Source: an uncultured SAR86 cluster bacterium (GTDB lineage: Bacteria; Pseudomonadota; Gammaproteobacteria; Magnimaribacterales; D2472). From it: a stretch of 64,000 nucleotides of DNA. Both the position numbers and the translations under genes were made by a program. Location of the stretch: assembly GCA_902558395.1 (NCBI GenBank), contig CACEDS010000002.1, forward strand, positions 9,662-73,661. Direction: 5' to 3'. Shown one piece after another: positions 2,849 through 52,451 of this stretch. Below the pieces are notes generated by a model. The model worked only from the letters and a program-made list of their open reading frames with translations. It was not told the DNA's origin and ran no database searches. The first letter of the stretch is position 1; each line of letters opens with the position of its first letter.

Positions 2849-3655
2849 TTAATTAATAGTATCCAAATATAAATTGATCTTATTCTGAAATTCTTCTCTT
2901 TTTTTATTATTAATTTTCATGCTGAAATGATGTTTAGATTTTGTATAAAGTTTGTGTAATAAAAATCTAATAATATAAAAAGGATTTACACCAAATTCTC
3001 TAAGTGATTGTATATTGCCTTTAAAGATATTTATAAAATTTTTAGAACTTTGTCCTCCGGATGTCATGCACACTACTGGTGAATTAATAATAAGATTTTT
3101 TCTATTCTTTTTTAGAAGATTTTTAAAAAATCCATAATCAGCAGAAATGTATGATTCTAGATTAAATCTAGTATCGTCAATAAGATTACGACTCATGAAT
3201 GTTGAAAAATGAGGCAATTGAAAATGAGCAGGTATCGAATACAAATTCGATGGCATGGACCAATATCGTTCAATTTCATTGTTTTGATTTACATAAAATA
3301 GCTCAAAAACTATTAGCTCATAGTTATTCTCCATAAAGCTTTTATATGCAATGCTAAATACATCATTTGATATCAAGAAATCGTCTGATCCAATCATAAA
3401 TATTAGATCGCCATTAGCTAAATCTATGCCTTTATTGAGAGCATCAAAAATCCCATTATCTTTTTCATGAATAACTAAATTGCATTTATCACGAAGGTAT
3501 TCAAGAGTATCTTCAAAAAAAATTTTATCTGAACCTCCATCCATAACAATAATTTCATATTTATCTCTGTCAAAATTTTGTGATAGGATGCTTTTGACGG
3601 TTCGTACTATTCTTTTATCATTATACGAGGGAATAATTATGGAAATTTGTATCAT
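2849..3655 (-). CDS. Glycosyltransferase family 2 (WcaE-like)
   Basis: ISIIIPSYN, IIVMDGGS, HEKDNGIFDALNKGI, FMIGSDD, YISADY, MTSGGQS. Confidence 0.88.
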   Translation of the reverse strand: MIQISIIIPSYNDKRIVRTVKSILSQNFDRDKYEIIVMDGGSDKIFFEDTLEYLRDKCNLVIHEKDNGIFDALNKGIDLANGDLIFMIGSDDFLISNDVFSIAYKSFMENNYELIVFELFYVNQNNEIERYWSMPSNLYSIPAHFQLPHFSTFMSRNLIDDTRFNLESYISADYGFFKNLLKKNRKNLIINSPVVCMTSGGQSSKNFINIFKGNIQSLREFGVNPFYIIRFLLHKLYTKSKHHFSMKINNKKREEFQNKINLYLDTIN

Positions 3656-4596
3656 AATTTGCTCATTTTATAATGATTATACTGCTCTTCTAGGCTGCAA
3701 AGATGCTCATAAGATCTTTTTTTTATTTTTTTATAATATCCCTTTAAATCTTTAGTATAACTGTCCTCATCGAATACTCTTGGTACATTCATTAATTCAA
3801 ACATTTGTTTATAGTTACTTTTAATCTTGTAATTAAAATGGTTAGCAACTTTCATGACTTCGGGTAAAGGGTCTTGAACTAGGTCTTCAAAGAAAATATT
3901 TATTGCATTAGATTGGTCATTGCTAAAAAAATCTTCATAGTATTTACTCACTACTAAATAGCATCTCTCTTCTGGGCAACTATCAAACCATTTCTCCTTG
4001 TAGCTATAAGCAAAGCCAGGGATATTCATACCTTTATAGTTAAAATAATATTTGCCCATCCTGTCTAATTCGTCATACCTTGAACCTCTTCCAGTCTCGC
4101 ACCATTCAAGGAAAACCCTTTTTGGATTCCTGATTGTGTTGATATTTATAAAATTGAAACCTTTTTTATTTAGCTCTTTTTGAATATTAAGTTTTAGATC
4201 TGTTGTAAAACAAGGTATAAATTTTGAAGATGACCATGAATAAGTAAAATCTTGCCAAGATTGTGAGTTATCATTTCGTTTATTTCTTATATCTAATTCT
4301 TTTTGTGAAGAGAGTTTTAAAAATGAACTTTGGTCTAATTCTTTTAAATTGATACCCCTCCCTATATAGCTGTACCATGAATAAATTTTAAAATAGTTTG
4401 CTAAAAGTGTGGCTGTTGCTTGTAAATTAATATCACCAGAGTCATGTGCATCCAATATCCAATCTGGGAAAGGCTCATTTGATGGCACATCAATATTTTC
4501 AACACTTGAGACAACATACCAGGTAATTGCTTTTCCAGATCTTGATATACCATTTAACAATATAATTGGACTATTTAAATTATTTATATTAGTCAT
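3652..4596 (-). CDS. Putative sulfotransferase (P-loop NTPase fold)
   Basis: N-terminal LNGISRSGK resembles the 5'-PSB loop; TIRNPKRV resembles the 3'-PB motif; FFEDLVQDP near the C-terminus. Confidence 0.6.
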   Translation of the reverse strand: MTNINNLNSPIILLNGISRSGKAITWYVVSSVENIDVPSNEPFPDWILDAHDSGDINLQATATLLANYFKIYSWYSYIGRGINLKELDQSSFLKLSSQKELDIRNKRNDNSQSWQDFTYSWSSSKFIPCFTTDLKLNIQKELNKKGFNFININTIRNPKRVFLEWCETGRGSRYDELDRMGKYYFNYKGMNIPGFAYSYKEKWFDSCPEERCYLVVSKYYEDFFSNDQSNAINIFFEDLVQDPLPEVMKVANHFNYKIKSNYKQMFELMNVPRVFDEDSYTKDLKGYYKKIKKRSYEHLCSLEEQYNHYKMSKL

Positions 4597-4603
4597 TTAA
4601 GAG

Positions 4604-5305
4604 TTAATATAATATGTAAGAAATCAGGGAACTAATCAAATAAATTATACCCCCAAGCGTACCAACTAAATATATGAAGTTTCTAATAAAACTACTCTGT
4701 TTATGATTATTTTCTTTATGATTTTCTTGAGTACTATTGAAATCTTCTTTTGCTATAACTGCAACTGCAATAGCCAAATTATCTGAATGGGAGATGCTAA
4801 TCGAAAAATTTTTAAACGACGGAATATCATTTTCATATTTTATTTCAATACTATTCCAGTTTCTAATACTTATATTTTTAGCTTTATAAATGGCTTCTTT
4901 TGCTGCAAATATTCCAGTTAAGGTTTCTTTTGGATTATCTTTTGATTCAGCATAGCTAATCTCCCTAACCGTAAAAATATTAAGCAAATCATCATCGTTC
5001 TTTGAAAAATTAGTTTTGTCTTTTAGAAATTCATTAACACTTTGTATATCAATCCCAATTAATAAGTTAGATTTTGATTTATCTGATGTAAAAAAATATG
5101 GATTAATATTTGAATTTATTCCTGCTTGCCAAAATGAATTATTCGATAAATCAGGTACTTCAATATTATTTTCATCACACCATGCAGCAATTCTAGATTT
5201 TTGAGCTGAGGTCAAGGAAATTGAATTAACTTCATAAATATCAACATCTGTGAGTTTTAAAATAAAACTTCTTAATAAATCTATATTTTCTATTCTAGTA
5301 TCCAT
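4604..5305 (-). CDS. acpS: Holo-ACP synthase (AcpS-type PPTase) with N-terminal ACP-like domain and C-terminal hydrophobic helix
   Basis: LIGIDIQ, FTVREISY, GIFAAKEAIYKA, SISISHS; start placed at ATG 5305, overlapping the upstream stop (track start 5344). Confidence 0.8.
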   Translation of the reverse strand: MDTRIENIDLLRSFILKLTDVDIYEVNSISLTSAQKSRIAAWCDENNIEVPDLSNNSFWQAGINSNINPYFFTSDKSKSNLLIGIDIQSVNEFLKDKTNFSKNDDDLLNIFTVREISYAESKDNPKETLTGIFAAKEAIYKAKNISIRNWNSIEIKYENDIPSFKNFSISISHSDNLAIAVAVIAKEDFNSTQENHKENNHKQSSFIRNFIYLVGTLGGIIYLISSLISYILY

Positions 5306-6569
5306 TAAAACAGTTCTCACAAATATTGGACTCTCCACCATCAAATTTAGTTATCTTTATAAAACCTATGCTGCCATGAGCCTTTAATTCACTTGCACTT
5401 ATTTCGCATTTATCACACTTCATATATTTAATCCTGTCCTCATTAAAAAAATGAGATTCAACATTTGTTTTTAATTTTTGTAAAAACTTTGAAACGTACA
5501 GCCCTGAAGAAATTTTATGATCAAATCCAACATATATATCATATGTAAATGAATTTCTTTTAATTATGCCAATTATAGAAGATTGGTTGCTACTTACTAA
5601 AGGTAACATGTAGGTTGCACCCACATTTGAAAGATCAGATATAGTAAAAGTTGTTGAAGTTAATAACTTTTCGTTAATTGTTTGATTAGATTCGAATAGA
5701 TCAAGCAATTCAATTATTTTATTTTGAACTTCTTTTAGTGTTAATTTGTCCGAATTCTCTATGGATAGTACTTTTAAATTTGAATCATTATCAAAACTAA
5801 AACCAGCATTGACTTGGTCATAAGCACCATATTGTTTTTCGTTAAGATAAAATGAGTTTAACTCTGGAAAATCAACTAATAGCTTTGATGCCTCAAATGT
5901 CACTATGTCAGAAATAGACTCTTTAAACATATATGGCACTGAGTAAGATCTAGTTGGAAGACATTTTATCTCTATACCAATTACTGATTGAGTTGATATA
6001 TTTCCATTAGATGTAAGATTATTTATTTCAGCCCTTTTTCTTAATGTGAAATTTTTTTCATCATAGCTAACTGTTGGTAAGTCTGAAATATTTTTGTTAT
6101 GTGGAGGTTTATATAACTTTTTTGAAGATATCGAAATTGCATCTTCGTGATTTTGGCTATCTTTAGAAATAAATTTTTTTACATCCTCTAAAGTTACCAT
6201 TTTTTTCTCTGAATAAAAGTTTGTTATTTGTTTTTTATCTAACAAAGCTTTTGCATCTTTATTAATAATGTATTTATCTAAATTAGAAAGATTATCATTT
6301 GTATCTTCTGAATTATTTATTTCGGATTCTTTAGCTCCTATTTTGTCTAATACTTCAAATAGGCAACTTCCAATAGATATTTCATCCCCTTCTTGAACAT
6401 GTAGATTAATATATCCACTTTTAGGTGTTTCAATAGCGATTGCTGTTTTTGATGTTTCTAGGTCCAGAATTAACTTGTTTTTTTCAGCTTTTTCATTGTT
6501 AGTTACATAAATTTTTTCAACTATAACAAATTCATCATTAACATTATCTTTTGGCACATAAACTTTCAT
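5295..6569 (-). CDS. 2-oxoacid dehydrogenase E2-like protein (lipoyl domain + acyltransferase domain + C-terminal 4-Cys tail)
   Basis: Lipoyl motif LETSK41TAIAIETPKSG; TFTISDLS and GFDHKISSG match the E2 catalytic domain; tail CDKC...CENC. Confidence 0.82.
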   Translation of the reverse strand: MKVYVPKDNVNDEFVIVEKIYVTNNEKAEKNKLILDLETSKTAIAIETPKSGYINLHVQEGDEISIGSCLFEVLDKIGAKESEINNSEDTNDNLSNLDKYIINKDAKALLDKKQITNFYSEKKMVTLEDVKKFISKDSQNHEDAISISSKKLYKPPHNKNISDLPTVSYDEKNFTLRKRAEINNLTSNGNISTQSVIGIEIKCLPTRSYSVPYMFKESISDIVTFEASKLLVDFPELNSFYLNEKQYGAYDQVNAGFSFDNDSNLKVLSIENSDKLTLKEVQNKIIELLDLFESNQTINEKLLTSTTFTISDLSNVGATYMLPLVSSNQSSIIGIIKRNSFTYDIYVGFDHKISSGLYVSKFLQKLKTNVESHFFNEDRIKYMKCDKCEISASELKAHGSIGFIKITKFDGGESNICENCFNGY

Positions 6570-6574
6570 TTTTT

Positions 6575-8572
6575 CTAGATTGATTCAGATTTGAGCTTAT
6601 TTAAATTTTCTATTATATACTCAATTGTTGGCAGTGAATTATCCTCTAATGATCTTATTGATGGAATTGGATAAGGCATTGCTCCAATTTTTATAAAATT
6701 TATGTCGTTATAATAAGCTATGATTTCGGAAATAAGCTCAGACCCTAAGCCAAAGCTAGTTGATCCATCTTCGATAATCGCTAGATTTCTGGTTTTATTA
6801 AAAAGTCTCAAAATTGGATTGAGGTTGTATGGGTTTATACAAGTTAAACATGCCACTTGAATTATAAAACCTGTTTCTTGAAAAATTTCAACAAATCCGT
6901 CAACAACTTCTCTAGCAGTTCCCCCATAGGTTATGACAGTTAAGTTTGGATCCATTTCTTTGGGTTTAAGTATTATAGGTCCATAGCTTCCTCCAATTTG
7001 TTGAATTGATAAAAAGTCATTTTCTTGAAACAGTTTTTTTCCATAATCGACTTTGTTTTCTAAAATAATTGCTGGGCAATCTAATGTTCTTAAATCCTTC
7101 ATCATTTTTGATGGGTCAATTAATGAAGTAACAGCAAACATAGCGACATTATCTATACCGGCAAAAAACTTTTCCAGTGATTGAGAATGAGTTGGACCAT
7201 AACCTCTTTTACCACCCATTGGGGTTCTAATTCTAACTGGAGCAGAGCATTGAAAAGCATACATATGGTAAAACTTTGAAGCATTACTTAATATCTGATC
7301 GAATGAATAAGACAAAAAATCTCCAAACATAATTTCTACAAAACTTTTATTACCCATCATCGACAGTCCTATTCCTAGTCCAGTTATTGCAGCTTCACTA
7401 ATAGGTGTCCCGATAACTTTTTTAGGGTAAAGTTCAGACAATCCTTTTGAAACTTTAAAAGCACCACCATATGGATCTAATATATCTTCACCAATAAAAT
7501 ATGAACCATTTTCAATTTCATTTTTGTAAGCATCGTTCAGGACATTTATTAATCTTAGGTCTGGATTATGCACATCTTTAGATTTTGCAGAAATTTTTCG
7601 TGGGAGCTGGTCATGGAAATATTCATCTTTTTGAAGATAAGATGGCTGCGAATTATTGATATACCTAGCTACCTTGGTCTTAATATTTTCAAAATTTTTA
7701 TTAAGCAAATTAGTTTTCTTTAAAATATTCAATGAATCATATTCTTTAAAAAATTCTATTTCTTTTTTATCTCTATCGTCATCAGATTTAGAATGAGCAT
7801 TAAGTCTATATGTTTTAATATCTATAAAGCATGGTTTCTGCTTATGTTTTGAGTACTCAATTGCTTCTTGGCATGTTTTGAAGAGATGGTCTAAATCCCA
7901 TGTGTTTGTTGAATAAAACTCTAGATCGAATGCTTTTGCTCTAAGCTCAATTGATCCAGATAATGCGCGAAATTGTTCAGTTGATTGTGAGTAAAGATTA
8001 TTTTCCAGTACAAAAATATGGGGTAAGGAAAATATGCTTGCAAGATTCATAGATTCATAAACAAGACCTTCTCCTAGCGTGCCTTCACCCAGAAAGGATA
8101 CACACACATTATTGCTATAGTTATCTTTTAAGTGCTTAGCAATTCCACATCCAACGGGTACAAGTGCTGCTTGAGGACCATTGGAGAGAAAACCTTCAGC
8201 AAATAAATGTTGGCTGCTTCCAATACCTTTACACACCCCTGACTTAAATCCTCTTAATTCATCTATAAGAGCCTCCCACTTCATAGTTTTTGAGATAAAA
8301 TGCCCATGACATCTATGATTGGATGTTACCCAATCATTTTTATCTAAAGCTCTTGAAATAGCCACCCCAGTAAATTCCTGTCCAACACATGTGTGCACAG
8401 TTCCATTCATGTCACCCTGATTGAAAAGATTTAAAAAAGAATTTTCAACCTCTCTTATTAAAATTGCAGTCTCAATATCAGATAAATAGTTCTTTATAAT
8501 TGAATTATTATCATAGCTTTGAGAAGCCAATGACTTAAAATGCTCAAGATGTTGAGTGTTTTTCATGAACAT
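6575..8572 (-). CDS. ThDP-dependent 2-oxoacid dehydrogenase E1, alpha/beta fusion
   Basis: Alpha: GTVHTCVGQE, SNHRCHGH, GEGTLGEG...ENN, TYRLNAHS. Beta: IGEDI.DPYGGAFKVSKGL, TPISEAAI, EIMFGDF, YGPTHSQS. Confidence 0.9.
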   Translation of the reverse strand: MFMKNTQHLEHFKSLASQSYDNNSIIKNYLSDIETAILIREVENSFLNLFNQGDMNGTVHTCVGQEFTGVAISRALDKNDWVTSNHRCHGHFISKTMKWEALIDELRGFKSGVCKGIGSSQHLFAEGFLSNGPQAALVPVGCGIAKHLKDNYSNNVCVSFLGEGTLGEGLVYESMNLASIFSLPHIFVLENNLYSQSTEQFRALSGSIELRAKAFDLEFYSTNTWDLDHLFKTCQEAIEYSKHKQKPCFIDIKTYRLNAHSKSDDDRDKKEIEFFKEYDSLNILKKTNLLNKNFENIKTKVARYINNSQPSYLQKDEYFHDQLPRKISAKSKDVHNPDLRLINVLNDAYKNEIENGSYFIGEDILDPYGGAFKVSKGLSELYPKKVIGTPISEAAITGLGIGLSMMGNKSFVEIMFGDFLSYSFDQILSNASKFYHMYAFQCSAPVRIRTPMGGKRGYGPTHSQSLEKFFAGIDNVAMFAVTSLIDPSKMMKDLRTLDCPAIILENKVDYGKKLFQENDFLSIQQIGGSYGPIILKPKEMDPNLTVITYGGTAREVVDGFVEIFQETGFIIQVACLTCINPYNLNPILRLFNKTRNLAIIEDGSTSFGLGSELISEIIAYYNDINFIKIGAMPYPIPSIRSLEDNSLPTIEYIIENLNKLKSESI

Positions 8573-8579
8573 ATTTTAG

Positions 8580-9665
8580 TTAATTATCTGAGGTTTGTAA
8601 TGATTTAATTTCACTTATTATCTCTTCAACAGATTCTGGAAAATGAATAGTTTTTGTTGCAGCCCTCTTTAATGTATTTTTAATAGACCTGTTTACTATT
8701 TTTTCAGCACTCTTATTAATTTTTATTGCTTTTGCGAAAGAAATAATTTTAAAGCTGTCATTATACGCCATTCCTGATGAAGTAAAACCTATGCCTGATA
8801 CTAAATTAGGATGATTATAAAAAAATTGTATCGGAATGTGATGAGGTAAAACTTTAAAGCCATATCTAATATACTTTTTTTCTAATGATTTTTTATAATT
8901 TCTAGGCTTAAATTTAAGATAAACCTCAAGATTGATTGAGTTGGCTTTACGAACTAAATTTCTTATGAAGTTCCAATATTCATCTCTTGATACAATGTCA
9001 TTACCAAATAAATCCTTCTCAATAAATATAATTCCAGCATCCCTTATTTCATAGATGTTTTGATAATTTTCAATAATTGCATTATCAATCTCTATTTTTC
9101 CTAAGGTTTGGGTTTTGAAATTATTATTTCTATAAAACTTATCGGAGATACCAATAAGTGGAGATTTTCTATTTATAATTGGATTTGTGTATTTAAGAGA
9201 TAAATTTTTTCCAATTAATAATCTGTGGAAAAAATAATATATAAAATCTTGAAATGAAGATGGTTTTTTATCTTTAATGATAAATTGTTGTTCTTCATAG
9301 CTAACCAAATGTATTTTGTTTAGCGACTTAATTTTTTTTAATTGAATTAGGCCTATATCCCCCCAATCTTTAAAAGTAACAATTAAATTTTTGCATGAAA
9401 AATTTTTTACAAGCAATCTTAAAAAAAATAAATGAAAAGGATAATAAAGCTTCTTAACACTCGAATATAAAAGATTATAGTTGCCGAATCTTAAAACTTT
9501 TATATTAACTTTTTTATGAAACAATTCTTTTAAAAAATTTTCAAGCGACTTGTTACCAATTACAATTATTAGGGACATCGCATCCTCAGCATATATCCTA
9601 TTAATAATAGAATTAACTGCTGGATAAGACTGCACAAGATATATATTTTCGTATTTAATTTTCAT
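8580..9665 (-). CDS. Hypothetical protein, possible ulosonate (sialyl/Kdo-type) glycosyltransferase
   Basis: Soluble, Lys-rich, directly after wzx; C-terminal YLKFKPR and GIGFTSSG loosely resemble nucleotide-binding loops of bacterial sialyltransferase-like GT-B proteins. Confidence 0.4.
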   Translation of the reverse strand: MKIKYENIYLVQSYPAVNSIINRIYAEDAMSLIIVIGNKSLENFLKELFHKKVNIKVLRFGNYNLLYSSVKKLYYPFHLFFLRLLVKNFSCKNLIVTFKDWGDIGLIQLKKIKSLNKIHLVSYEEQQFIIKDKKPSSFQDFIYYFFHRLLIGKNLSLKYTNPIINRKSPLIGISDKFYRNNNFKTQTLGKIEIDNAIIENYQNIYEIRDAGIIFIEKDLFGNDIVSRDEYWNFIRNLVRKANSINLEVYLKFKPRNYKKSLEKKYIRYGFKVLPHHIPIQFFYNHPNLVSGIGFTSSGMAYNDSFKIISFAKAIKINKSAEKIVNRSIKNTLKRAATKTIHFPESVEEIISEIKSLQTSDN

Positions 9666-17438: not shown

Positions 17439-18952
17439 TTTTCTATTTCCCAACTTAAATTTATTTTATCAAAGCTATTAAAATGTAAATGTAAAGAATG
17501 AGTGTCCATTGAGTTTGAATATGATTTTGCAGCAATGCTTTTGTCTATATTATAAATGAAATCATGATTAGATGATAAGCTCAATAAGATACCATTTGAC
17601 TCAAAAATTTTTAGCCTAGGCATGTCTTGTTTTATATTTAAATTCGATTTAAAAAATAATGTAATTTTTGAATCTCCTTTAAATTTAAATTCATCACAAA
17701 TTTGCAGAGTATCAGAGGATACTGACCTTTTCCAATATATATCATTGTAGCTATAGGATAAAGTGACAACATTATTGTCAGTTTTATGAACAAAAGATCC
17801 TTTAAATGATTTTACAAAGTTTTCATGCTTAACCATAGAATTGGCGGATTGTGCAAAAGGAGCATTATGATATTTTGCATCATCATATCTTTTTTCTTTA
17901 TCTGCATAACTTAATGTTCCCGGATCAATAACTATTGGCTGGCCATTATTATAAATATTAAAGTGGCCATAATCATCATGATAGTGACCTAGCGTTCCAT
18001 AGTTATATATCTTTCTGTGATTTAAAACTAAATTAATTGGGCCTTTATGAAAAGAGGATATATTTTCATTCCATAGGCTTTCTGATACTGCTAGAGGTTC
18101 AGTAAATAACTCATTGACATCATTTGTAACTTTTAAATTTGGTAGATATCTAGTTCCATCAATATCTCCAAAATTTAAGTTTGTTATATTTGATTGGTTT
18201 GAGTTTATTGCTTGCAGTGACCTATAAAGATTTGGATAACTTTTTATTATTCTATTATCACCTATTAAAAAAGAAACCTTACTTAATCCCTCAGATACTG
18301 AAAAGGAATAAAAAGATGAACCTTCCATCAAAAAACCATCTTTCGAAAATTTTGAATTTATGTATTTATAAAAACTATTTAAGGTTGATGGTTTTAATTT
18401 TTTATAAAAAAATTTGAATAAAGTTTGAAAAAATAAGCAAAAAATAAAATGGTTATTGCTCTCATCTCGCAAAAGAAATTTTTTTCTTTTAAAGAACATA
18501 TCAGGACATAATATGTTGAGAAAATATGTTCGTTTAAGAAACTTGAATAGCATGTTTTTGTCTTGTGTTGACAAAAGTGTTTCTTTATCTTGAATAAACA
18601 TTAATATATTAGAAGCCCTTAGAGAACATTCCATCATGTTCTCAAAGAGAATATCATCATAAAAACGTATTTGAGAAAACCAATATCTTAATGAATTTAA
18701 CTGCTCAGATGCACCGATTTTAGAATGATTCAGAAAATCTAACCTATGAAATTCCCATAGTTTTCTTTTATCTTTATCTTTAAGATATTCCTCATAAGCA
18801 TTATCAAGAGTTTGACGTAATGCAGAATCATTAACATCTATTCTGATTTGTCTATGTGAATAAACAAGCTTTATTATCTTTGGTCTTAAATCTATCTTAA
18901 ATAATTTCCTAAAAGAGATATGAAAAAAAAATATTAATTGATATGTAAACAT
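17426..18952 (-). CDS. Heparinase II/III-like protein
   Basis: GFLMEGSSFY, GDIDG, HYHDDYGHF...IVIDPGTLSY, HNAP match the C-terminal heparinase II/III-like domain. Confidence 0.72.
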   Translation of the reverse strand: MFTYQLIFFFHISFRKLFKIDLRPKIIKLVYSHRQIRIDVNDSALRQTLDNAYEEYLKDKDKRKLWEFHRLDFLNHSKIGASEQLNSLRYWFSQIRFYDDILFENMMECSLRASNILMFIQDKETLLSTQDKNMLFKFLKRTYFLNILCPDMFFKRKKFLLRDESNNHFIFCLFFQTLFKFFYKKLKPSTLNSFYKYINSKFSKDGFLMEGSSFYSFSVSEGLSKVSFLIGDNRIIKSYPNLYRSLQAINSNQSNITNLNFGDIDGTRYLPNLKVTNDVNELFTEPLAVSESLWNENISSFHKGPINLVLNHRKIYNYGTLGHYHDDYGHFNIYNNGQPIVIDPGTLSYADKEKRYDDAKYHNAPFAQSANSMVKHENFVKSFKGSFVHKTDNNVVTLSYSYNDIYWKRSVSSDTLQICDEFKFKGDSKITLFFKSNLNIKQDMPRLKIFESNGILLSLSSNHDFIYNIDKSIAAKSYSNSMDTHSLHLHFNSFDKINLSWEIEKCLN

Positions 18953-19896
18953 TTTTTTATATTTTTTATTTCGAAATTTACTTCATTTATTAAATTTTTA
19001 TGCTCAATATCATTAAAAACTGGTGGTTTCTCTGATATCTTTAAAACGTTAGATACTATTGATTCGCTCTTATGTGAGGAATATGTACACAATGAACTGT
19101 AAAATTCTTTATTTTCATTACTATCATTTATAAGACAGATTTTTTTATAAGCTAGTGCTTCTCTTGGTGCAAATAATAGATTGTACTTTCTTGTTGTCAT
19201 TGCAATTATTATTTCAGACTTCATGATGTGTTTAAAATAATCAGTTTTTTTTAGAAAGCCTGTAAAAAAACTTTTACCCTTATAAATTTGTTCATCCGTT
19301 AATTTTGAGAAATTACCTGAAATTTTTATATCAAATCCATGTTTTTCAAGTTCAATTGCAGCATCTAAAAAAGCGTCCACTGGCTCATCTTTATTTAAAC
19401 TTGAAATTATAAAAATTGAATTTGGTTTAATCTTTGTTAAATTTATTGCTTCAACAGGAAATGGTGAAGGACAATAATGTGAGCGATTAATTAGCTTAAC
19501 AGATGCTTTATTATGAACTAATATTTTATACCCTAGTATATTTTTATAGAAATATATTAAAAACAATTTGAAGAATGTTCTAGGACTAAATAAACGGACA
19601 TCAAGATATGAATTCACATGGCAATCAAGAATAATCTTAAATTTTTTTGTTTTAAAGATATTTACGAAAGCGCAGGTTAAAACAGGAATAAAGTTTCCAT
19701 CATATTCTAAAATGAGTTGTGAATTGCTATTTAAATGATTGTAGAATCTATATACTTTTTTTATTGATGTAAATCTTAAACTTTTGTATATGTTCCCTAT
19801 TTCAGGTAATTTAATAGTTTCAATATTTAGTTTCGCTGGCAAAGATTGAGTTCTTGGACTTTCGTGAAGGGCAATATAAGTAGTCTTGACAATCAA
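18934..19896 (-). CDS. Glycosyltransferase, GT-B fold (GT4-like, divergent)
   Basis: IILDCH, ISSLNKDEP, FFTGFL, PREALAY (EA motif); TTG start. Confidence 0.65.
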   Translation of the reverse strand: MIVKTTYIALHESPRTQSLPAKLNIETIKLPEIGNIYKSLRFTSIKKVYRFYNHLNSNSQLILEYDGNFIPVLTCAFVNIFKTKKFKIILDCHVNSYLDVRLFSPRTFFKLFLIYFYKNILGYKILVHNKASVKLINRSHYCPSPFPVEAINLTKIKPNSIFIISSLNKDEPVDAFLDAAIELEKHGFDIKISGNFSKLTDEQIYKGKSFFTGFLKKTDYFKHIMKSEIIIAMTTRKYNLLFAPREALAYKKICLINDSNENKEFYSSLCTYSSHKSESIVSNVLKISEKPPVFNDIEHKNLINEVNFEIKNIKKCLHIN

Positions 19897-23306: not shown

Positions 23307-24212
23307 TTAGTCCTGTCTTTTAACAGGTCTTAATATTACAAAAGCTAGAGATAAAAATAATCCAATTAGCGTCGAAAAGATTACTATTTTTCTTTTATCT
23401 GGATAATCTTTTCTTTCTGGAACGCGCGATGAATCAACTACTGAAAATACAAAATACTCTGATGATTCAGATAACGTAATTGTTTCCAATTCCTTTATTA
23501 AAAGTGAGGATATTGCTTTTTTTAAATCGACTTCTTTCGTCATAGACAACTCATTTTGTAAAAACTCATAAGATTTTTCTGCCTTAGTAAGCTTCATCTC
23601 TTTTACAACTTCATTGAGCATTACAAATATATAATCAAGCCATTTTTTTGCAACATACGGTGAATAGTGAGAGACCGAAATCAATAACGAGCCGCTATCT
23701 AAATCTGTTATCTTTATACTATTTAGAAATTCAACATGAACATCTTCATGAAAAAGAGTTTGAAGGTACTCATCATTGATTGTGTTTTTTTCTTCGTCAT
23801 ATATAGCATTATCATAAATAAGTTTCTTGTTTTTTTTGTCGTAGTCTTCTGCTGCAACAAGTTCAACAAAAAATTCACTATCTTCTATTAAGATATCAAA
23901 AAAGTCTTTTGTATAAATTACTTCTCGTGCGAACTGTGATCTAGTTTTACTAGAGGCGCTGGAAGATGATAGACCGGCTAAAGTTGATAGACCACTAAAT
24001 GCTGTTGATTGATTATAAGAATCATTTGTATTTACCTCTTCGACTATCATCTTTGATGTATATAATTCTTTTAAAGATAAAGAATAAAAAAATGATGCTA
24101 AACAAAATACTGTTGTAATTAACAAAATTAAATATTTTGAAGAACGTACCTTCTTAAATATTTCATACAAATCTATTTCGTCATTCAAGTTTTTATCAAT
24201 GAGGTTGTTCAA
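23307..24212 (-). CDS. wzz: Polysaccharide chain-length determinant
   Basis: DEIDLYEIF, two terminal TM helices, P.KDYPDKRKIV; TTG start with AGGGA RBS. Confidence 0.88.
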   Translation of the reverse strand: MNNLIDKNLNDEIDLYEIFKKVRSSKYLILLITTVFCLASFFYSLSLKELYTSKMIVEEVNTNDSYNQSTAFSGLSTLAGLSSSSASSKTRSQFAREVIYTKDFFDILIEDSEFFVELVAAEDYDKKNKKLIYDNAIYDEEKNTINDEYLQTLFHEDVHVEFLNSIKITDLDSGSLLISVSHYSPYVAKKWLDYIFVMLNEVVKEMKLTKAEKSYEFLQNELSMTKEVDLKKAISSLLIKELETITLSESSEYFVFSVVDSSRVPERKDYPDKRKIVIFSTLIGLFLSLAFVILRPVKRQD

Positions 24213-24230: not shown

Positions 24231-24317
24231 TGGTACCCGGAGCCGGACTTGAACCGGCACGCTATTTCTAGCGAGGGATTTTAAGTCCCTTGTGTCTACC
24301 AATTCCACCACCCGGGC
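24231..24317 (-). tRNA. leuZ: tRNA-Leu (TAA)
   Basis: Reverse complement GCCCGGGTGGTGGAATTGGTAGACAC-AGGGA-CT-TAA-AA-TCCCT...GGTTCAAGTCC...CCGGGTACCA; 87 nt, long variable arm, encoded CCA. Confidence 0.97.
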
Positions 24318-24371: not shown

Positions 24372-24445
24372 TGGAGGCTGAGGCCGGAATCGAACCGGCG
24401 TAGACGGCTTTGCAGGCCGCTACATAACCACTCTGTCACCCAGCC
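24372..24445 (-). tRNA. cysT: tRNA-Cys (GCA)
   Basis: Reverse complement GGCTGGGTGACAGAGTGG...GCGGC-CT-GCA-AA-GCCGT...GGTTCGATTCC...CTCAGCCTCCA; 74 nt, U73 discriminator. Confidence 0.97.
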
Positions 24446-24494: not shown

Positions 24495-25253
24495 TTATAA
24501 CGTATCAAAAAAATCAACAGCTGTATCATAAAAAGTAATTCCCTCTATAGATGATGGTTCTTTTGTTTCTCCTGTTAAGACAATTATAGTTTTAGCACCT
24601 ATTTTAACTCCAACATCGCCATCAGTATAGATTCTATCTCCAACAACATAAGCATTTGAATTTTTTATATACTTACTTATGAAGTTTGAATAATGATCTC
24701 CAGGCTTACCAAAATGATCTATTGGTTTAATATTCGTTGTTTTAAAAATAAGTTCACCAATAGACCCACAATCAGGAATTGGCCCTTTTGCTGTCGGACA
24801 TGATAAATCAATATGAGTTAAGAAATAAGGAATCCCATCATTAATCCATTCACAAATTTTTTGTAATTCAGCATAAGATAAACCTTTGTTAAAGGTCATC
24901 AATATACAATCAGGAGCACTCTTATCACTAGTGACTTGCAATCCATGAAAGAATTCATCCTTTACAGAATCTGATCCAGAAACATATATGTTCTTATACT
25001 CATATGTTGAGGATTTAAAGTAAGATTTTGCTGTTAAAATTGGGCTGATAATACTATCTTTAGCGCAAGGGAATCCAATTTCGCCTAACTTTTGAGTATA
25101 CTCATTGATGGAAAGACTACTATTGTTAGTCATGTAATAAATATCATTTCCATTTTGTTCCAATTTATTTAAGGATTCTACTATTCCATCAAATGGAACA
25201 CCGTCCTGATATAAAGTTCCATCAAGATCGCATAATATTACATTACGTTCCAT
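24495..25253 (-). CDS. HAD-IIA (NagD-like) phosphatase/phosphotransferase, Gtp3-like
   Basis: CDLDGTLY, MTNNSS, PDCG, GKPG, VGDRIYTD, VLTGET. Confidence 0.85.
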   Translation of the reverse strand: MERNVILCDLDGTLYQDGVPFDGIVESLNKLEQNGNDIYYMTNNSSLSINEYTQKLGEIGFPCAKDSIISPILTAKSYFKSSTYEYKNIYVSGSDSVKDEFFHGLQVTSDKSAPDCILMTFNKGLSYAELQKICEWINDGIPYFLTHIDLSCPTAKGPIPDCGSIGELIFKTTNIKPIDHFGKPGDHYSNFISKYIKNSNAYVVGDRIYTDGDVGVKIGAKTIIVLTGETKEPSSIEGITFYDTAVDFFDTL

Positions 25254-25957
25254 TTATTCCTAGCCTTTCTCAAATCTTCTAGGGTATCTATCTCATACCA
25301 AAAAGATTTTTTGATGTCTTTATTTTTAATCATATTTTTATTTTTGTATGCTAAATCATTAATTGCCACTTCAGTCCATTTAGTTATTTCGCCTTTTTCT
25401 ATATAAGAGTCAAAGATTAAAACAAGTTTGTTGAAATCATTACGAGTAAACATATACATATCCAATGAAACGATTATATCCTCAGCATTTGTGAAAGCTT
25501 TGCTCATACCAACAACATGATTATCTTTTATTTTAGCCTTCATGCTTTCCTCATCAAAAAATGATTTGTCGGTAAGGATTGTAGTCTCTTTAGTTTTTGC
25601 TAAGATCTCAAATATTTTATCTTCAAAAATACAATCTGCATTTACAATAACAACATTATCATCTTCATTTAATTTAGGTACTGCGAGCCATGCTGAATAC
25701 ATATTATTTGTACTTTCATAATCTGAGTTATGTACAAATTTTATGTTATTAAATTTTGACTTCACATGATTTTTTAGATAAACATCTTTGTATCCTGTAA
25801 CTATTATGATGTTAGCTGAATTAAAGTTCTCATTAATTTGTGACAACAGCATTCTTATTATGCTGTTTTGATTAATCTTGATACAGCATTTAGGTCTACC
25901 TTCAGTTAGTGGTCTTAACCTAGAACCAATACCAGCTGCAAGTATTATAAAATTCAT
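25238..25957 (-). CDS. Nucleotidyltransferase (LicC/Gtp2-like cytidylyltransferase)
   Basis: IILAAGIGSRLRPLT..PKC, TNNMYS, NADCIF, WYEIDTLEDL. Confidence 0.85.
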   Translation of the reverse strand: MNFIILAAGIGSRLRPLTEGRPKCCIKINQNSIIRMLLSQINENFNSANIIIVTGYKDVYLKNHVKSKFNNIKFVHNSDYESTNNMYSAWLAVPKLNEDDNVVIVNADCIFEDKIFEILAKTKETTILTDKSFFDEESMKAKIKDNHVVGMSKAFTNAEDIIVSLDMYMFTRNDFNKLVLIFDSYIEKGEITKWTEVAINDLAYKNKNMIKNKDIKKSFWYEIDTLEDLRKARNKWNVM

Positions 25958-25960
25958 TAA

Positions 25961-26995
25961 TTATTCTCCTAAAAAATTAATATATTTTTCGTATAGCTCC
26001 TGCTCATCATATTTATCGAGAATATTCTTCCTTTCTGGCCTCAATATTTTTGATAATCTGAACACTTTTATCATTTCATTTTTAGTCATATTTTCGAAAC
26101 CAGGTATGCCCTTTTTAATTCCTAGATTCCTTAACAACCTTGACACATTTTTATCACTCTTCCCTTGCATAAAAAGAGTAAATTCTGAAATAGATCCGAC
26201 CTTTTCGCCATGAAGCAACTGTTCTGCAACGCCTAACTCATCTAATGCATGAGAGATAATATGCTCACTTCCACTACAAGGTCTTGAAGATCCAGCGATA
26301 GTCATTGCCATGCCCGACAATAACTGGACATCCAAAATAGTGTCGAGGACCCTTTCGTCGTCAAGTAATAAATTTTTTATATTTAATATCATTGATGCAG
26401 CCATTTTTGATAAATTAATAGCCATGCTTTGAGAGGTATTCAAATTTATATTTTCATCAGCATAATACCAATCATTAACAGCACTAATATTTGATAAAGT
26501 ATCTAAAATTGCTGCTTTAATAAATTTTAATGGAGCCTCTTTGATAATTTCTATTGGAACAATAATAATATCCGGCATCTTACCAATAAGACTTTTCTTT
26601 CTATTGTTTTCACTTATTACAGCAATAGGACTAGCCATTCCATCATTTGATACGGTTGTTGGTACTGAAATTAGATCAATACAACTCAGATATGCCAATC
26701 TTTTCGCAAAGTCTGTCGCAACACCTCCGCCAATAGAAACTATATAATTAACGTTCATTGATGATATCTCATATCGAATTGAATCAATTTTATTGTGAGA
26801 ATTAATATTAATCTTGAAAGACGCTTTTGGTTTATTTTTTAAACTCTTTAAAATATCTAATGAAATTAAATTAGATTTTGTTGGGCCTGATACGACTACA
26901 TAAGACTTTTCTGAAGGTAAGAATTTATCAAGCAATTTTCCAGTTTCAATTATATTGCTTGTTTTAACAAAGTTTAATGGGTAGTCTATTTTCAT
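25961..26995 (-). CDS. Glycerol-1-phosphate-dehydrogenase-like polyol dehydrogenase (EgsA/AraM/Gtp1 family)
   Basis: IGGGVATDFAK, PTTVSNDGMASP, GSSRPCSGSEHIISHALD, LHGEKVG. Confidence 0.85.
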   Translation of the reverse strand: MKIDYPLNFVKTSNIIETGKLLDKFLPSEKSYVVVSGPTKSNLISLDILKSLKNKPKASFKININSHNKIDSIRYEISSMNVNYIVSIGGGVATDFAKRLAYLSCIDLISVPTTVSNDGMASPIAVISENNRKKSLIGKMPDIIIVPIEIIKEAPLKFIKAAILDTLSNISAVNDWYYADENINLNTSQSMAINLSKMAASMILNIKNLLLDDERVLDTILDVQLLSGMAMTIAGSSRPCSGSEHIISHALDELGVAEQLLHGEKVGSISEFTLFMQGKSDKNVSRLLRNLGIKKGIPGFENMTKNEMIKVFRLSKILRPERKNILDKYDEQELYEKYINFLGE

Positions 26996-27138: not shown

Positions 27139-27912
27139 TTATTTAGCTGAGTAATATTCTGTTCTCTCGATATCATCTTCTACACACTCTTCGCCATATT
27201 GAATTTCAATAAGGTGACAAGTTTCTTTAAATGGATTTGTTATTTGATGCCATTCTCCTATAGGCACAAGATAATGATCAAACTTATTAAGTTTTATATT
27301 TTGCTTATTATCAGGATCACCTTTACTGTAATTTACAATACAGGATCCTTTGCTGACCATCCATATTTCACTTCTTTTAAAATGCTTCTGGAAGCTCATT
27401 CCTTTACCCGGATCAACAATAAGCTCTTTAACCTTAACCTGATCATCTTCAAAAAGATTGTAGAAAGATCCCCATAACCGTTCTTCGTGATAATATTGCC
27501 AATTTTTAAGTATCCATGATGATGAATTTTTTTTATCATCTCCGCCAACGCTAAATTCAAAGGATATATTATCTAAAGACATTTCAGGGATATTTTCTTT
27601 ATTTCTGTCCCCTCCATTTGCAAAAATTATGTCGTCATCAGGGTACATTTCTTTTATTTTTATCAAAGCATTTTTTGCGCTGCCTAATTCATCATCTTCA
27701 AATTCAATCACCAAATCAATACATGATAAATTTTCAACTATTGCTCTTCGTTCTTCAAATGGCATAAAAAATTTACCTTTCTTATTTATGAGCCATTCAT
27801 CACTATTCAACGCAACTATGAGTTTTTCACCAAGCTTTTTTGCAGATTTAAAGTAGGCTATATGTCCAGAATGTATGGGGTCAAACCCTCCGCTAACAAC
27901 TATTATTTTCAT
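27139..27912 (-). CDS. HIGH-motif cytidylyltransferase fused to a mannose-6-phosphate-isomerase-type cupin
   Basis: SGGFDPIHSGH, FANGGDR, KKNSSS; cupin ERLWGSF, KVKELIV.PG..MSFQKH.KRSE.W, WHQITN, EIQYG..C.EDDIER. Confidence 0.82.
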   Translation of the reverse strand: MKIIVVSGGFDPIHSGHIAYFKSAKKLGEKLIVALNSDEWLINKKGKFFMPFEERRAIVENLSCIDLVIEFEDDELGSAKNALIKIKEMYPDDDIIFANGGDRNKENIPEMSLDNISFEFSVGGDDKKNSSSWILKNWQYYHEERLWGSFYNLFEDDQVKVKELIVDPGKGMSFQKHFKRSEIWMVSKGSCIVNYSKGDPDNKQNIKLNKFDHYLVPIGEWHQITNPFKETCHLIEIQYGEECVEDDIERTEYYSAK

Positions 27913-27974: not shown

Positions 27975-28526
27975 TTATTCTAAAGTTTTATTGTTATTAA
28001 AAGAATTGAGAGTATAAATTAAGCCTGTATACAAGGTTATGAAAAGCGAAATAAATAAAAATATATCAGCAATGATTATTATCAACATATTATTTATTAA
28101 CAAACCAAAAAGGTAAACAAATAAGGTCGATAATTGAACTGTGGTTTTAACTTTTGCTAAGAATGTAACCTTGGTTGCATCACTTTTTCCATTTCTTGCA
28201 TTGTAATCTCTTAGAGCACCCACCCAAATTTCTCTTGTGATAATTGCTGCGCCTACAAAACCAATCAAATAACTGGATAAATTTATTGCAAGTCCAAATA
28301 AAATAAAAAGAATCAGAATCTTGTCTGCGATTGGATCAAGTATTTCACCAAGGTGGGATACTGCATTATATTTGCGTGCTAAATACCCATCAAAATAATC
28401 AGTTATTCCTGCTAAAAAAAATAATATAAGCGCCATCAGATATCCATCAGGTGACATTAATAATAAAAATATAAATGCTGCAAGAAATATTCTTGATAAT
28501 GTCAGTATATTTATAAAAATTGACAC
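27975..28526 (-). CDS. pgsA: CDP-diacylglycerol--glycerol-3-phosphate 3-phosphatidyltransferase
   Basis: TDYFDGYLARK...GEILDPIADK CDP-alcohol phosphotransferase motif; follows uvrC. Confidence 0.93.
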   Translation of the reverse strand: MSIFINILTLSRIFLAAFIFLLLMSPDGYLMALILFFLAGITDYFDGYLARKYNAVSHLGEILDPIADKILILFILFGLAINLSSYLIGFVGAAIITREIWVGALRDYNARNGKSDATKVTFLAKVKTTVQLSTLFVYLFGLLINNMLIIIIADIFLFISLFITLYTGLIYTLNSFNNNKTLE

Positions 28527-51647: not shown

Positions 51648-52451
51648 TTGAAAGACTTTGATAGAATTTCCTTTTCAAAAGATGTTGCTGAAACCTTAGG
51701 AATCGAAGCTGCAATAATACTTGAACTATACCAACAAAATAAAATCACCTATTCCGGTGATTCTGAGCTCTTTAAAACTTTGGTAAAGCAAGAATTACCT
51801 TTCATTGAGCATGCGCTTATTGAGGCATGTCTAAAAAAACTATTAAATTACAAGCTGATATCAAATTCACAAGAAATAACAAACAAAAAAAATTACAATT
51901 TAAAAGCTGCTCAAGCAAATAATACAAAAAAATTAAAAATCGATTCAAATTGGTCACCATCCAATGAAGCTTTGGAAATTCTAAATATGGGTGAAATCCC
52001 AAAAACTTTCATTTCAAGCAAAGTAAAAGAATTTGTTTTATATTGGACAGAAAGAGGACAAGAACGAAATAACTGGAACACTTCTTTTATAGATTACATT
52101 AGAAGAGAATGGGCAAAGGAACAAAGTTCAACTAAAGGGCTACCACATACTATAGATTTCGAATGGTCTCCAAGTAATGATGCATATGATATCCTTGAAT
52201 TATCTGATATCTCAAAAGAATCAGCTTCAAAATATTTAAGAGAATTTATACTATACTGGAAAGAGAATGGTTCTGCTTTCACAACATGGAACTCTAAATT
52301 TATTGAACATGTAAAAAGAAGACATATATCAGATAACCAAAATTTAAAAGATGAAGAAAATCAAAAACATACTGAACCAGGAAAATATGGAAAAGACTTT
52401 TCAGCAAGAAAAGGTGACTCCTCTTGGGCGTCAGAAATCAACTTTGAATAA
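51648..52451 (+). CDS. DnaT-like DNA-binding protein with two tandem DnaT domains (lambda O-derived DopC-like)
   Basis: N-terminal FSKDVAETLGIEAAIIL; internal repeat WSPSNEA...EFVLYW...WNTSFIDYIRR and WSPSNDA...EFILYW...WNSKFIEHVKR; TTG start. Confidence 0.72.
   Translation: MKDFDRISFSKDVAETLGIEAAIILELYQQNKITYSGDSELFKTLVKQELPFIEHALIEACLKKLLNYKLISNSQEITNKKNYNLKAAQANNTKKLKIDSNWSPSNEALEILNMGEIPKTFISSKVKEFVLYWTERGQERNNWNTSFIDYIRREWAKEQSSTKGLPHTIDFEWSPSNDAYDILELSDISKESASKYLREFILYWKENGSAFTTWNSKFIEHVKRRHISDNQNLKDEENQKHTEPGKYGKDFSARKGDSSWASEINFE

Follow-up and report, generated by a model that had tools for sequence, protein, structure and literature searches.

The best described counterpart of the locus presented here is the pneumococcal CDP-2-glycerol pathway, formed by Gtp1, Gtp2 and Gtp3 in serotypes 15A, 15B, 23F and 23B. 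The corresponding genes lie in the order wchX-gtp1-gtp2-gtp3 and have been genetically tied to capsules containing glycerol-2-phosphate (Gro2P); the gtp products are named 'glycerol-2-phosphate dehydrogenase', 'nucleotidyl transferase' and 'phosphotransferase', and WchX is the transferase. Gro2P is also known from the O-antigen of a Gram-negative bacterium, E. coli O33.

As for the enzymes themselves, Wang and coworkers are said to have found in 2010 that pneumococcal Gtp1 turns dihydroxyacetone (DHA) into glycerol in vitro and, reportedly by NMR, that the three Gtp enzymes yield CDP-2-glycerol. The window, meaning the whole 64-kb stretch of DNA analysed here, contains three genes that we read, with a probability of roughly 0.6, as an operon of the gtp1-gtp2-gtp3 type, whose product, a CDP-activated glycerol phosphate and most likely CDP-2-glycerol, would serve to decorate a surface polysaccharide (O-antigen or capsule) through phosphodiester links. 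Gene order, product names and synteny lend indirect support to the kinship of this trio to pneumococcal gtp1-3. Gtp1-3 presumably belong to the same protein families as the window proteins, a placement that we base on the product names and on the name of P0223, a Firmicutes member of the dehydrogenase family called 'putative glycerol-2-phosphate dehydrogenase'. No Streptococcus sequence appeared among the best 120 matches listed for each search with the window dehydrogenase, with a Clostridia/Sarcina dehydrogenase profile or with P0223, and no E. coli O33 homologue emerged when four different trio DNAs served as queries in distant blastn.

The Gene Trio and Its Surroundings

The genes for a dehydrogenase (DH), a nucleotidyltransferase (NT) and a HAD-IIA enzyme (HAD) follow each other in that order as three co-oriented ORFs on the minus strand, spanning 24495-26995 (Table 1). 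Only 3 nt lie between the DH stop and the NT start, and the NT and HAD genes overlap by 16 nt. The coordinates, families, order and coupling claimed in the original prediction were all borne out: the ORF positions proved identical, and the families were recovered in Pfam, NCBIfam and PDB matches. Catalytic motifs are complete in the three proteins, whose clusters at the level of at least 90% hold 10-13 members.

Table 1. Features of the trio locus and its neighbours, in window coordinates
Feature	Position	Strand	Remarks
gtp1-like dehydrogenase (DH)	25961..26995	-	344 aa; G1PDH (EgsA) branch of Fe-ADH_2; predicted DHAP reductase yielding sn-glycerol-1-phosphate
gtp2-like nucleotidyl(cytidylyl)transferase (NT)	25238..25957	-	239 aa; LicC-like in the N-terminal nucleotide-binding half only
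gtp3-like HAD-IIA enzyme	24495..25253	-	252 aa; predicted phosphotransferase, phosphomutase or phosphatase
tRNA-Cys (GCA)	24372..24445	-	directly downstream of the trio; same position in Tara relatives
tRNA-Leu (TAA)	24231..24317	-	boundary between trio and variable glycan island
Wzz-type chain-length determinant	23307..24212	-	opens the glycan island downstream
PF01467 cytidylyltransferase-like + mannose-6-phosphate-isomerase cupin fusion	27139..27912	-	upstream neighbour of the trio
pgsA	27975..28526	-	TIGR00560, 119.7 bits (cutoff 109.1); housekeeping, context only

The glycan island extends leftward to the end of the window and comprises epimerases, UGDH, GT2s and Wzx- and Wzy-like membrane proteins. 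Two tRNA genes part it from the trio, an observation that was counted against the reading as glycan decoration. On the other flank, the PF01467-cupin fusion has 241 members in its cluster at the level of at least 90%, against the far smaller clusters of the trio genes, and probably belongs to the core genes of the lineage; it matches weakly (1e-12) the profile of the TagD-like cytidylyltransferases (CTs) of the HAD-less loci described below, and its connection to the trio is uncertain. A conserved uvrC-pgsA-tRNA arrangement holds around the trio, with pgsA following uvrC, as in E. coli.

The assignment of the DNA to a marine-type gammaproteobacterium stood up as well: the Pgi protein falls in a cluster, at the level of at least 90%, of 'Gammaproteobacteria bacterium' MAG proteins, the nearest relatives of the trio are Tara Oceans contigs, the G+C content of the window is about 30%, and the gene orders uvrC-pgsA and cmk-rpsA-ihfB are gammaproteobacterial.

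Occurrence of the Trio in Other Genomes

Searching genomes with a single protein revealed no relative, whereas a profile search did. Besides the window, the trio was recovered from Vibrio harveyi (strain DSM 19623), Sphingobium, four Bacteroidota, Clostridia/Sarcina and Thermotogota, the carriers being named V. harveyi, Reichenbachiella, Arenibacter, Sphingobium, Sphingobacterium, Segetibacter, Sarcina, Clostridia and Thermotogaceae. The V. harveyi genes occur in the identical order and encode proteins sharing 41% (DH), 40.5% (NT) and 41% (HAD) identity with those of the window. At least four phyla contribute the 10 further loci in which the trio genes lie side by side, so that the arrangement exceeds chance; the module, of an already known kind, is widespread and not rare. 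On plasmids, tblastn returned solo or actinobacterial homologues only, among them a DH homologue adjoining a CDP-alcohol phosphatidyltransferase on a Streptomyces plasmid.

The NT and HAD genes adjoin each other in every one of the 11 trio loci (10 besides the window), with the DH gene before or after the pair. A TagF-like transferase (PF04464) is encoded in 8 of the 11, often abutting the trio, the window being one of the three loci that have none; this association supports the supply of CDP-activated glycerol phosphate. In V. harveyi, the locus additionally contains genes for LicD, Wzx, an EpsG-type protein, Wza and Wzz. The tie to a glycan decorated with glycerol phosphate, which the original prediction had proposed, was strengthened by the TagF-like CDP-glycerol glycerophosphotransferases and the Wzx/Wzy/Wza genes that adjoin the trio in other phyla, together with the pneumococcal gene order and product names.

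A second type of operon emerged from these comparisons, in which a TagD-like CT is combined with a DH and with TagF or LicD, and HAD is missing. Such operons are present in Bacteroidota (for instance in Fluviicola, and as a fusion in Pontibacter). The HAD gene accompanies LicC-like NTs only, and was found in none of the TagD-like CT plus DH operons, which fits an extra, isomer-defining step. LicC-like NT and DH pairs lacking HAD do exist in Solirubrobacterales, WOR-3 and one gut Firmicute.

The polyol-phosphate transferase had been described as absent from the window. In agreement with this, no segment resembling TagF (PF04464) or LicD emerged when all six frames of the 64 kb were searched with profiles built from related loci, no other candidate transferase was detected, and no such gene is present in the 13 kb seen of the Tara relatives. 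Comparison by hhalign with TagF and LicD profiles was negative for five ORFs (three devoid of a Pfam match, one GT2 and one heparinase II/III-like). The ORF at 18934-19896, considered as a transferase candidate, belongs instead to the GT4 glycosyltransferases: Glycos_transf_1 is matched by 37 of 50 relatives, and its AF2 model (pLDDT 95.5) has BshA, PimA and TarM as top folds. The ORF at 8580-9665 matches weakly the GT38 polysialyltransferases (E 0.0077; single-sequence model pLDDT 40).

The Dehydrogenase and the First Step

The window DH matches Fe-ADH_2 in Pfam (6.8e-21), and its best NCBIfam model is NF002022, for NAD(P)-dependent glycerol-1-phosphate (G1P) dehydrogenase (218.3 bits, below the cutoff of 413). 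In the PDB, it matches 3CE9 (2.4e-41) and the archaeal G1P dehydrogenases (G1PDH) 4RGQ and 5FB3 (both about 1e-31), with 30-37% identity to the archaeal enzymes. The metal ligands D165, H245 and H262 are the same as in archaeal G1PDH, and the signature SSRPCSGSEH is identical in 5FB3 and one residue off in 4RGQ. The Arg of this signature is kept in the window DH and lost only in the solo clostridial 3CE9 ('glycerol dehydrogenase') and in a second sequence, L085. Given the full G1PDH signature, including the Arg, the published conversion of DHA to glycerol looks unlikely as the first step for the window enzyme.

Compared by sequence, archaeal EgsA is nearer to the window DH than is 9H4X, the AraM-like PDB chain. 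In an NJ tree, which gives topology only and carries no support values, it is located in a bacterial clade with glycan-linked DHs of Vibrio and Bacteroidota, separate from both the archaeal clade and 9H4X, and the DHs of trio loci interleave with those of the HAD-less operons carrying a cytidylyltransferase and TagF or LicD. The original prediction had regarded a DH that groups with AraM/EgsA and makes only G1P as contrary to its reading. The picture obtained is mixed: the exact G1PDH motif and the proximity to EgsA agree with such a grouping, and the separate bacterial clade speaks against it. As judged from sequence, sn-glycerol-1-phosphate is a possible product of the window DH, and the signature taken together with the interleaving would make it the probable one.

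The HAD Enzyme and the Isomer

HAD matches Hydrolase_6 and Hydrolase_like in Pfam and scores 92.9 bits with TIGR01460 (HAD-IIA), slightly below the cutoff of 100.15. Motifs I-IV are complete (DLDGT, TNNSS, GKP and GDRIYTD), and the cap is of the C2 type. Its closest solved structure is Thermotoga maritima TM1742 (1PW5/1VJR, 4e-35), annotated as 4-nitrophenylphosphatase or NagD-like, which presents the same motifs I-IV and the cap motif CP(S/T)xxGP(I/V)PDxGS; the clade motif CPTAKGPIPDCGS is common to both proteins, and the HAD of the Thermotogaceae trio matches TM1742 at 7e-62. The presence of this enzyme is the sole ground on which the 2-isomer would be assigned.

The preferred reading, the supply of CDP-2-glycerol, can be laid out in four steps, in which the substrates, the phosphate position and the glycan acceptor are inferred. 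Briefly, the G1PDH-family DH would reduce a triose, its signature suggesting the conversion of DHAP to sn-glycerol-1-phosphate. The aspartyl-phosphate chemistry of HAD-IIA could then place the phosphate on C2, by way of a phosphotransferase or a phosphomutase activity, and the LicC-like NT would join glycerol-2-phosphate with CTP. Finally, a glycerophosphotransferase encoded outside the window may move the glycerol phosphate onto the glycan of the adjacent island.

A different product, CDP-sn-glycerol-1-phosphate, the enantiomer of the usual CDP-glycerol, would be expected if the DH were a true G1PDH whose product is activated directly by the NT, leaving HAD as an accessory phosphatase with a house-cleaning or regulatory function. 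The exact archaeal motif and metal ligands are in keeping with this option, as are the interleaving of the trio DHs with those of HAD-less operons, whose product must already be glycerol phosphate, and the HAD-less LicC-like NT and DH pairs; in Bacillus subtilis, moreover, AraL (a HAD-IIA protein) and AraM are neighbours. We nevertheless regard it as unlikely, although deserving consideration, since the translationally coupled NT-HAD pair is invariant across the trio loci, which suggests an obligatory step of the pathway instead of an accessory one, and a plain phosphatase would consume the substrate of the NT. The formation of CDP-2-glycerol by the three Gtp enzymes, as reportedly seen by NMR, is a further point against it.

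A further reading is advanced tentatively and with less than even expectation. Bacterial G1PDH-type enzymes might be widely distributed suppliers of glycerol phosphate for surface glycopolymers, a role largely overlooked, with the HAD-less operons leading to CDP-sn-1-glycerol and the HAD-IIA enzyme of the trio acting as a mutase from glycerol-1- to glycerol-2-phosphate or as a phosphotransferase. The route would in that case run from DHAP through sn-G1P and Gro2P to CDP-2-glycerol, and not from DHA through glycerol to Gro2P.

The Nucleotidyltransferase and Other Head Groups

The NT belongs to NTP_transferase in Pfam and carries the motif LAAGxGSRLxPLTxxxPK, as well as the motifs TNNMYS, NADC, SxDxY and WTEVA, which are common to the NTs of other trio loci. 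It may be asked whether this enzyme activates another phospho-alcohol (phosphocholine, phosphoethanolamine, a different polyol phosphate or a phosphonate), with DH and HAD making the head group. Its best PDB match is indeed pneumococcal LicC (1JYK, 6.5e-14), inositol-1-phosphate and 2-AEP cytidylyltransferases match more weakly, and a fragment in the NT cluster bears the JGI label 'choline kinase'. However, the alignment with LicC comprises residues 3-122 only, so the head-group half differs; besides the lack of LicD mentioned above, neither LicA nor LicB was found among the scanned ORFs (those of 1-28.5 kb and ten of 45-63 kb, about 20 ORFs of 28-64 kb lying outside the Pfam scan). In addition, a DH with the G1PDH signature would be predicted to yield a C3 polyol phosphate, and the TagF enzymes of the other trio loci are of the CDP-glycerol type. 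We therefore hold such a head group to be improbable.

Finally, the provision of sn-glycerol-1-phosphate for lipids of archaeal stereochemistry, or for some other membrane component, is in our view very improbable. In its favour are the membership of the DH in the G1PDH family, the position of pgsA 1 kb upstream and the phosphatidyltransferase neighbour of the Streptomyces plasmid homologue. Against it, pgsA is an ordinary equivalog in a conserved arrangement, the scanned ORFs (with the same 20 or so outside) yielded neither GGGPS/PcrB nor a UbiA-type prenyltransferase, the sole prenyl enzyme seen is a polyprenyl synthetase directly upstream of an unscanned 624-aa ORF (58160-60034), the DH is placed apart from the EgsA clade and scores under the equivalog cutoff, and the trio partners and the TagF association point to glycans. 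From size and position, the polyprenyl synthetase and the 624-aa ORF are taken to be a housekeeping ispA-dxs pair. The low rank given to lipids in the original prediction was consequently appropriate.

Should the preferred reading, CDP-2-glycerol for a surface glycan, be correct, abundant uncultured marine gammaproteobacteria of low G+C content would put glycerol phosphate, probably as the unusual 2-isomer, on a surface glycan, a decoration that would bear on recognition by phages and grazers and on marine organic phosphorus. Since the trio DH has the appearance of a true G1P dehydrogenase, steps one and two of the CDP-2-glycerol pathway as published would be worth re-testing, and the comparative data point to an undescribed CDP-sn-1-glycerol route in Bacteroidota.

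Comparison with Known Systems

Archaeal EgsA (4RGQ/4RGV, 5FB3) and the AraM-like bacterial G1PDH (9H4X) belong, like the window DH, to the Fe-ADH_2 fold family, and have in common with it the motifs GGG and SNDG, the metal ligands D/H/H and the signature SSRP(C/A)SGSEH. The window DH differs from EgsA in scoring under the equivalog cutoff, in its separate bacterial clade and in its genetic linkage, which is to a nucleotidyltransferase and glycan genes and not to GGGP synthase.

In the systems composed of TagD/Gct and TagF, which make teichoic acids and the teichoic-acid-like capsules of Gram-negative bacteria, the logic is the same, in that CDP-activated glycerol phosphate gives rise to a phosphodiester on a glycopolymer, and PF04464 enzymes are also encoded in other trio loci. 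In contrast to these systems, the glycerol phosphate of the trio would come from a G1PDH-type enzyme and not from GpsA or GlpK, the activating enzyme is LicC-like and not TagD-like, an extra HAD-IIA step is predicted, and TagF is absent from the window.

With respect to pneumococcal gtp1-3, the window trio is not adjacent to a wchX/TagF-like gene, it is located between pgsA and two tRNA genes, outside the glycan cluster, and its host belongs to a Gram-negative marine MAG lineage. In both cases, as likened by gene order and product names, three contiguous and co-oriented genes are placed in the order dehydrogenase, nucleotidyltransferase and phosphotransferase, inside or beside a glycan locus of the Wzx/Wzy type.

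The gtp1-3-like module

Three open reading frames on the minus strand of the window, at 24495-26995, had been proposed from the sequence to encode a G1PDH-family dehydrogenase (DH), a LicC-like nucleotidyltransferase (NT) and a HAD-IIA enzyme (HAD); the coordinates proved exact and the three families were borne out by matches. DH and NT are separated by a 3-nt gap and NT and HAD overlap by 16 nt. The top curated model for DH was the NAD(P)-dependent glycerol-1-phosphate dehydrogenase (218 bits versus a cutoff of 413), and its best solved relatives were 3CE9, a 'glycerol dehydrogenase' of Clostridium acetobutylicum (2.4e-41), and the archaeal G1PDHs 4RGQ and 5FB3 (~1e-31). HAD keeps motifs I-IV intact, its closest solved relative is T. 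maritima TM1742, and it carries the clade-specific motif CP(S/T)xxGP(I/V)PD(C/A)GS, common to TM1742 and all trio HADs. NT presents the canonical LAAGxGSRLxPLTxxxPK loop as well as four C-terminal motifs found in the other trio NTs and different in actinobacterial NT+DH pairs. The trio is a real, intact gtp1-3-type module.

Features of the window discussed in the text
Feature	Position	Strand	Description
DH	26995..25961	minus	344 aa; Pfam Fe-ADH_2
NT	25957..25238	minus	239 aa; NTP_transferase
HAD	25253..24495	minus	252 aa; HAD-IIA enzyme
CT-cupin fusion	27139-27912	minus	cytidylyltransferase-like (RfaE-II/TagD type) + mannose-6-phosphate-isomerase-type cupin; immediately upstream of trio
tRNA-Cys(GCA)	24372-24445	minus	between HAD gene and wzz
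tRNA-Leu(TAA)	24231-24317	minus	between HAD gene and wzz
GT4 sugar transferase	18934-19896
Polysialyltransferase-like ORF	8580-9665	minus	weak GT38 likeness, E 0.0077
E1/E2/phosphopantetheinyl transferase set	4604-8572	minus	fused E1 alpha/beta 2-oxoacid dehydrogenase (665 aa); E2 acyltransferase with lipoyl domain (424 aa); 4'-phosphopantetheinyl transferase (246 aa)
Sulfotransferase-like ORF	3652-4596	minus	weak likeness, PF13469, E 0.017
CMP-sugar synthetase-like	2170-2847
DnaT/lambda P-like pair	51648-52998	plus	protein with two DnaT DNA-binding domains, then phage lambda P-like replication protein
Polyprenyl synthetase	57285-58160
624-aa ORF	58160-60034

The best solved relative of NT is pneumococcal LicC, which would fit an enzyme activating phosphocholine. 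This is unlikely, since the likeness is confined to the nucleotide-binding half (NT residues 3-122), a profile search detected no LicD in any frame of the window, and neither LicA nor LicB was found among the ORFs searched against Pfam (those of 1-28.5 kb and ten of 45-63 kb; hereafter, the scanned ORFs).

Genomic setting and the adjacent glycan island

The assignment of the window to a marine-type gammaproteobacterium is reasonable: its G+C content is ~30%, it shows the gammaproteobacterial gene orders cmk-rpsA-ihfB and uvrC-pgsA, the >=90% cluster of its Pgi includes MAG proteins labelled 'Gammaproteobacteria bacterium', and the nearest relatives of the trio (56% identity for DH, 48% for NT and 53% for HAD) lie on Tara Oceans contigs. 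The 282-bp 'gap' between HAD and wzz contains two tRNA genes overlooked in the original prediction, and both stand at the matching place in the Tara relatives; in L081 and L082 they are set apart by an additional ~900 bp that include a UGDH fragment. Taken together with the E. coli order pgsA-glyW-cysT-leuZ, this places the trio and the upstream CT-cupin fusion within a conserved pgsA-tRNA junction, the variable glycan island starting directly after tRNA-Leu. The numbers of near-identical relatives per cluster (241 for the CT-cupin fusion, 10-13 for the trio proteins and 2-4 for the left-island proteins) agree with a conserved junction and a variable island, and its 241 relatives make the CT-cupin fusion a probable core gene of the lineage. 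At its position the Tara relatives have a 129-aa CT-like and a 135-aa APS-kinase-like protein. Elsewhere in the window, the DnaT/lambda P-like pair may be what is left of a prophage or mobile element.

The island, on the strand of the trio, encodes Wzz, two NDP-sugar epimerases, two members of the UDP-glucose-dehydrogenase family, three GT2 enzymes, Wzx-like and Wzy-like membrane proteins, a heparinase II/III-like protein, a 687-aa two-domain oxidoreductase, a CMP-sugar synthetase-like protein, a methyltransferase and an acetyltransferase, and it continues past the left edge of the window. The E1/E2/phosphopantetheinyl transferase set in its middle is not what O-antigen or capsule clusters usually contain and may serve acyl decoration. 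The weak sulfotransferase-like ORF, together with the APS-kinase-like gene upstream of the trio in the Tara relatives (L081, 1186-1593), hints at a sulfated glycan.

As predicted, no polyol-phosphate transferase was recognised in the window: a profile search of all frames of the 64 kb detected no TagF-like (PF04464, CDP-glycerol glycerophosphotransferase) or LicD-like segment. Of the ORFs considered as candidates, the one at 18934-19896, which also accompanies the trio in the Tara relatives, is a GT4 sugar transferase, and those at 3652-4596 and 8580-9665 show weak likeness to a sulfotransferase and to GT38 polysialyltransferase, respectively. The transferase would lie past the left edge, elsewhere in the genome, or belong to an unrecognised family.

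Distribution of the module

A profile scan with one genome per species retrieved more than 590 DH relatives, and six-frame translations of the bacterial loci were searched with DH, NT, HAD, TagF, LicD and TagD-like cytidylyltransferase (CT) profiles. Three patterns emerged: the full trio, a TagD-like CT with DH and no HAD, and a LicC-like NT with DH and no HAD. The trio was found in 11 loci (the window, a Tara relative, Vibrio harveyi, Reichenbachiella, Arenibacter, Sphingobium, Sphingobacterium, Segetibacter, Sarcina, a Clostridia MAG and Thermotogaceae), so that this kind of module, reaching Bacteroidota, Clostridia and Thermotogaceae, is far commoner than would be expected from the word 'rare', used in the original prediction of the glycerol-2-phosphate branch of pneumococcal capsules. 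NT and HAD are always adjacent, with DH either before or after the pair, and a TagF-like gene, often directly abutting the trio, is present in eight of the 11. The V. harveyi locus, for example, comprises Wza, Wzz, the trio, LicD, Wzx, two TagF-like genes and EpsG, and a twelfth locus (L019) reads TagF-DH-NT up to the contig end. In Thermotogaceae (L091, 319-5856), TagF-like, Wzx, DH, NT and HAD genes stand in a row; this HAD matches TM1742 (PDB 1VJR/1PW5) at 7e-62, and the solved TM1742 structure may therefore be that of a Gtp3-type enzyme.

The CT+DH pattern occurs in six Bacteroidota and one alphaproteobacterium (L003, 7441-10936; L004, L007, L008, L012, L011 and L002). The two genes overlap, except in Pontibacter (L011, 7515-9026), where they are fused, and TagF and/or LicD accompany them in five of the seven loci. 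HAD never accompanies the TagD-like CT in the loci profiled, and DH, which carries the G1PDH signature, is within these operons the sole possible source of glycerol phosphate for the CT. The operons imply that Bacteroidota have a CDP-sn-1-glycerol route to glycopolymers, of which no description was found in the literature searched. The third pattern is seen in Solirubrobacterales, WOR-3, a Kerfeldbacteria MAG and a gut Firmicute (L015, L016, L018, L043, L045, L066 and L086); neither TagF nor LicD appeared in any of these loci in the six-frame search, and the pairs may serve a purpose other than glycan synthesis. In the gut Firmicute (L086), large Sel1-repeat proteins follow the pair. On a Streptomyces fungicidicus plasmid (H10), DH adjoins a CDP-alcohol phosphatidyltransferase.

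The dehydrogenase and its likely product

In an alignment of 96 sequences, the window DH combines GGG and SNDG motifs with the D/H/H metal ligands and with SSRPCSGSEH, a motif identical in P. calidifontis G1PDH and essentially all archaeal EgsA, and differing by one residue in M. jannaschii G1PDH. Every archaeal G1PDH and every glycan-linked DH retains its Arg; only the solo clostridial 3CE9 and the C. butyricum homolog (L085, a megaplasmid, 5794-6855) have lost it (SSPASGAEH), and this loss may reflect a change to a non-phosphorylated substrate. By analogy with dehydroquinate synthase, where a phosphate-binding Arg precedes the metal-ligand His, this residue probably binds the substrate phosphate. 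The grouping with AraM/EgsA, named in the original prediction as grounds for refutation, holds for the archaeal G1PDH motif and metal ligands, but not for the topology of the neighbor-joining tree, which puts the archaeal enzymes in a clade apart and the window DH in a Gram-negative one, with trio and CT+DH enzymes interleaved. The simplest reading of these sequences is that this whole clade would reduce DHAP to sn-glycerol-1-phosphate (G1P).

Such a product could also supply archaeal-type lipids, with the nearby pgsA. This reading, already held to be the less likely, remains unlikely: pgsA is an ordinary equivalog in a conserved position, no GGGPS/PcrB was seen among the scanned ORFs, and the polyprenyl synthetase gene and the following 624-aa ORF were taken, from size and position, as housekeeping ispA-dxs.

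Proposed pathway and comparison with pneumococcal gtp1-3

Most likely, then, the module supplies a CDP-activated glycerol phosphate for a surface glycan of this marine gammaproteobacterium. The prediction of a glycan carrying glycerol-2-phosphate (Gro2P) or a related polyol phosphate is supported as regards glycerol phosphate, the 2-isomer being a best guess. DH would convert DHAP to sn-G1P, which fits a CDP-2-glycerol product only if HAD, as a putative mutase or phosphotransferase, shifts the phosphate to C2. An aspartyl-phosphate enzyme could plausibly carry out such chemistry, and the reported 'glycerol-2-phosphotransferase' activity is consistent with it. The interest of the module lies in its G1PDH-like first enzyme, this possible HAD role and the missing transferase.

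In the enzymology reported by Wang et al. 2010, Gtp1 reduces DHA to glycerol, Gtp3 converts glycerol to Gro2P, and Gtp2 forms CDP-2-glycerol from CTP and Gro2P. Gro2P also occurs in the E. coli O33 O-antigen. The pneumococcal genes, ordered wchX-gtp1-gtp2-gtp3, are annotated as 'putative glycerol-2-phosphate dehydrogenase', 'putative nucleotidyl transferase' and 'putative phosphotransferase' (gtp1-3), next to a 'putative glycerol phosphotransferase', and a Firmicutes protein of the DH family (P0223) bears the Gtp1 product name. The putative orthology of the window genes to gtp1-3 is supported indirectly, by composition, order, names and the TagF-like association.
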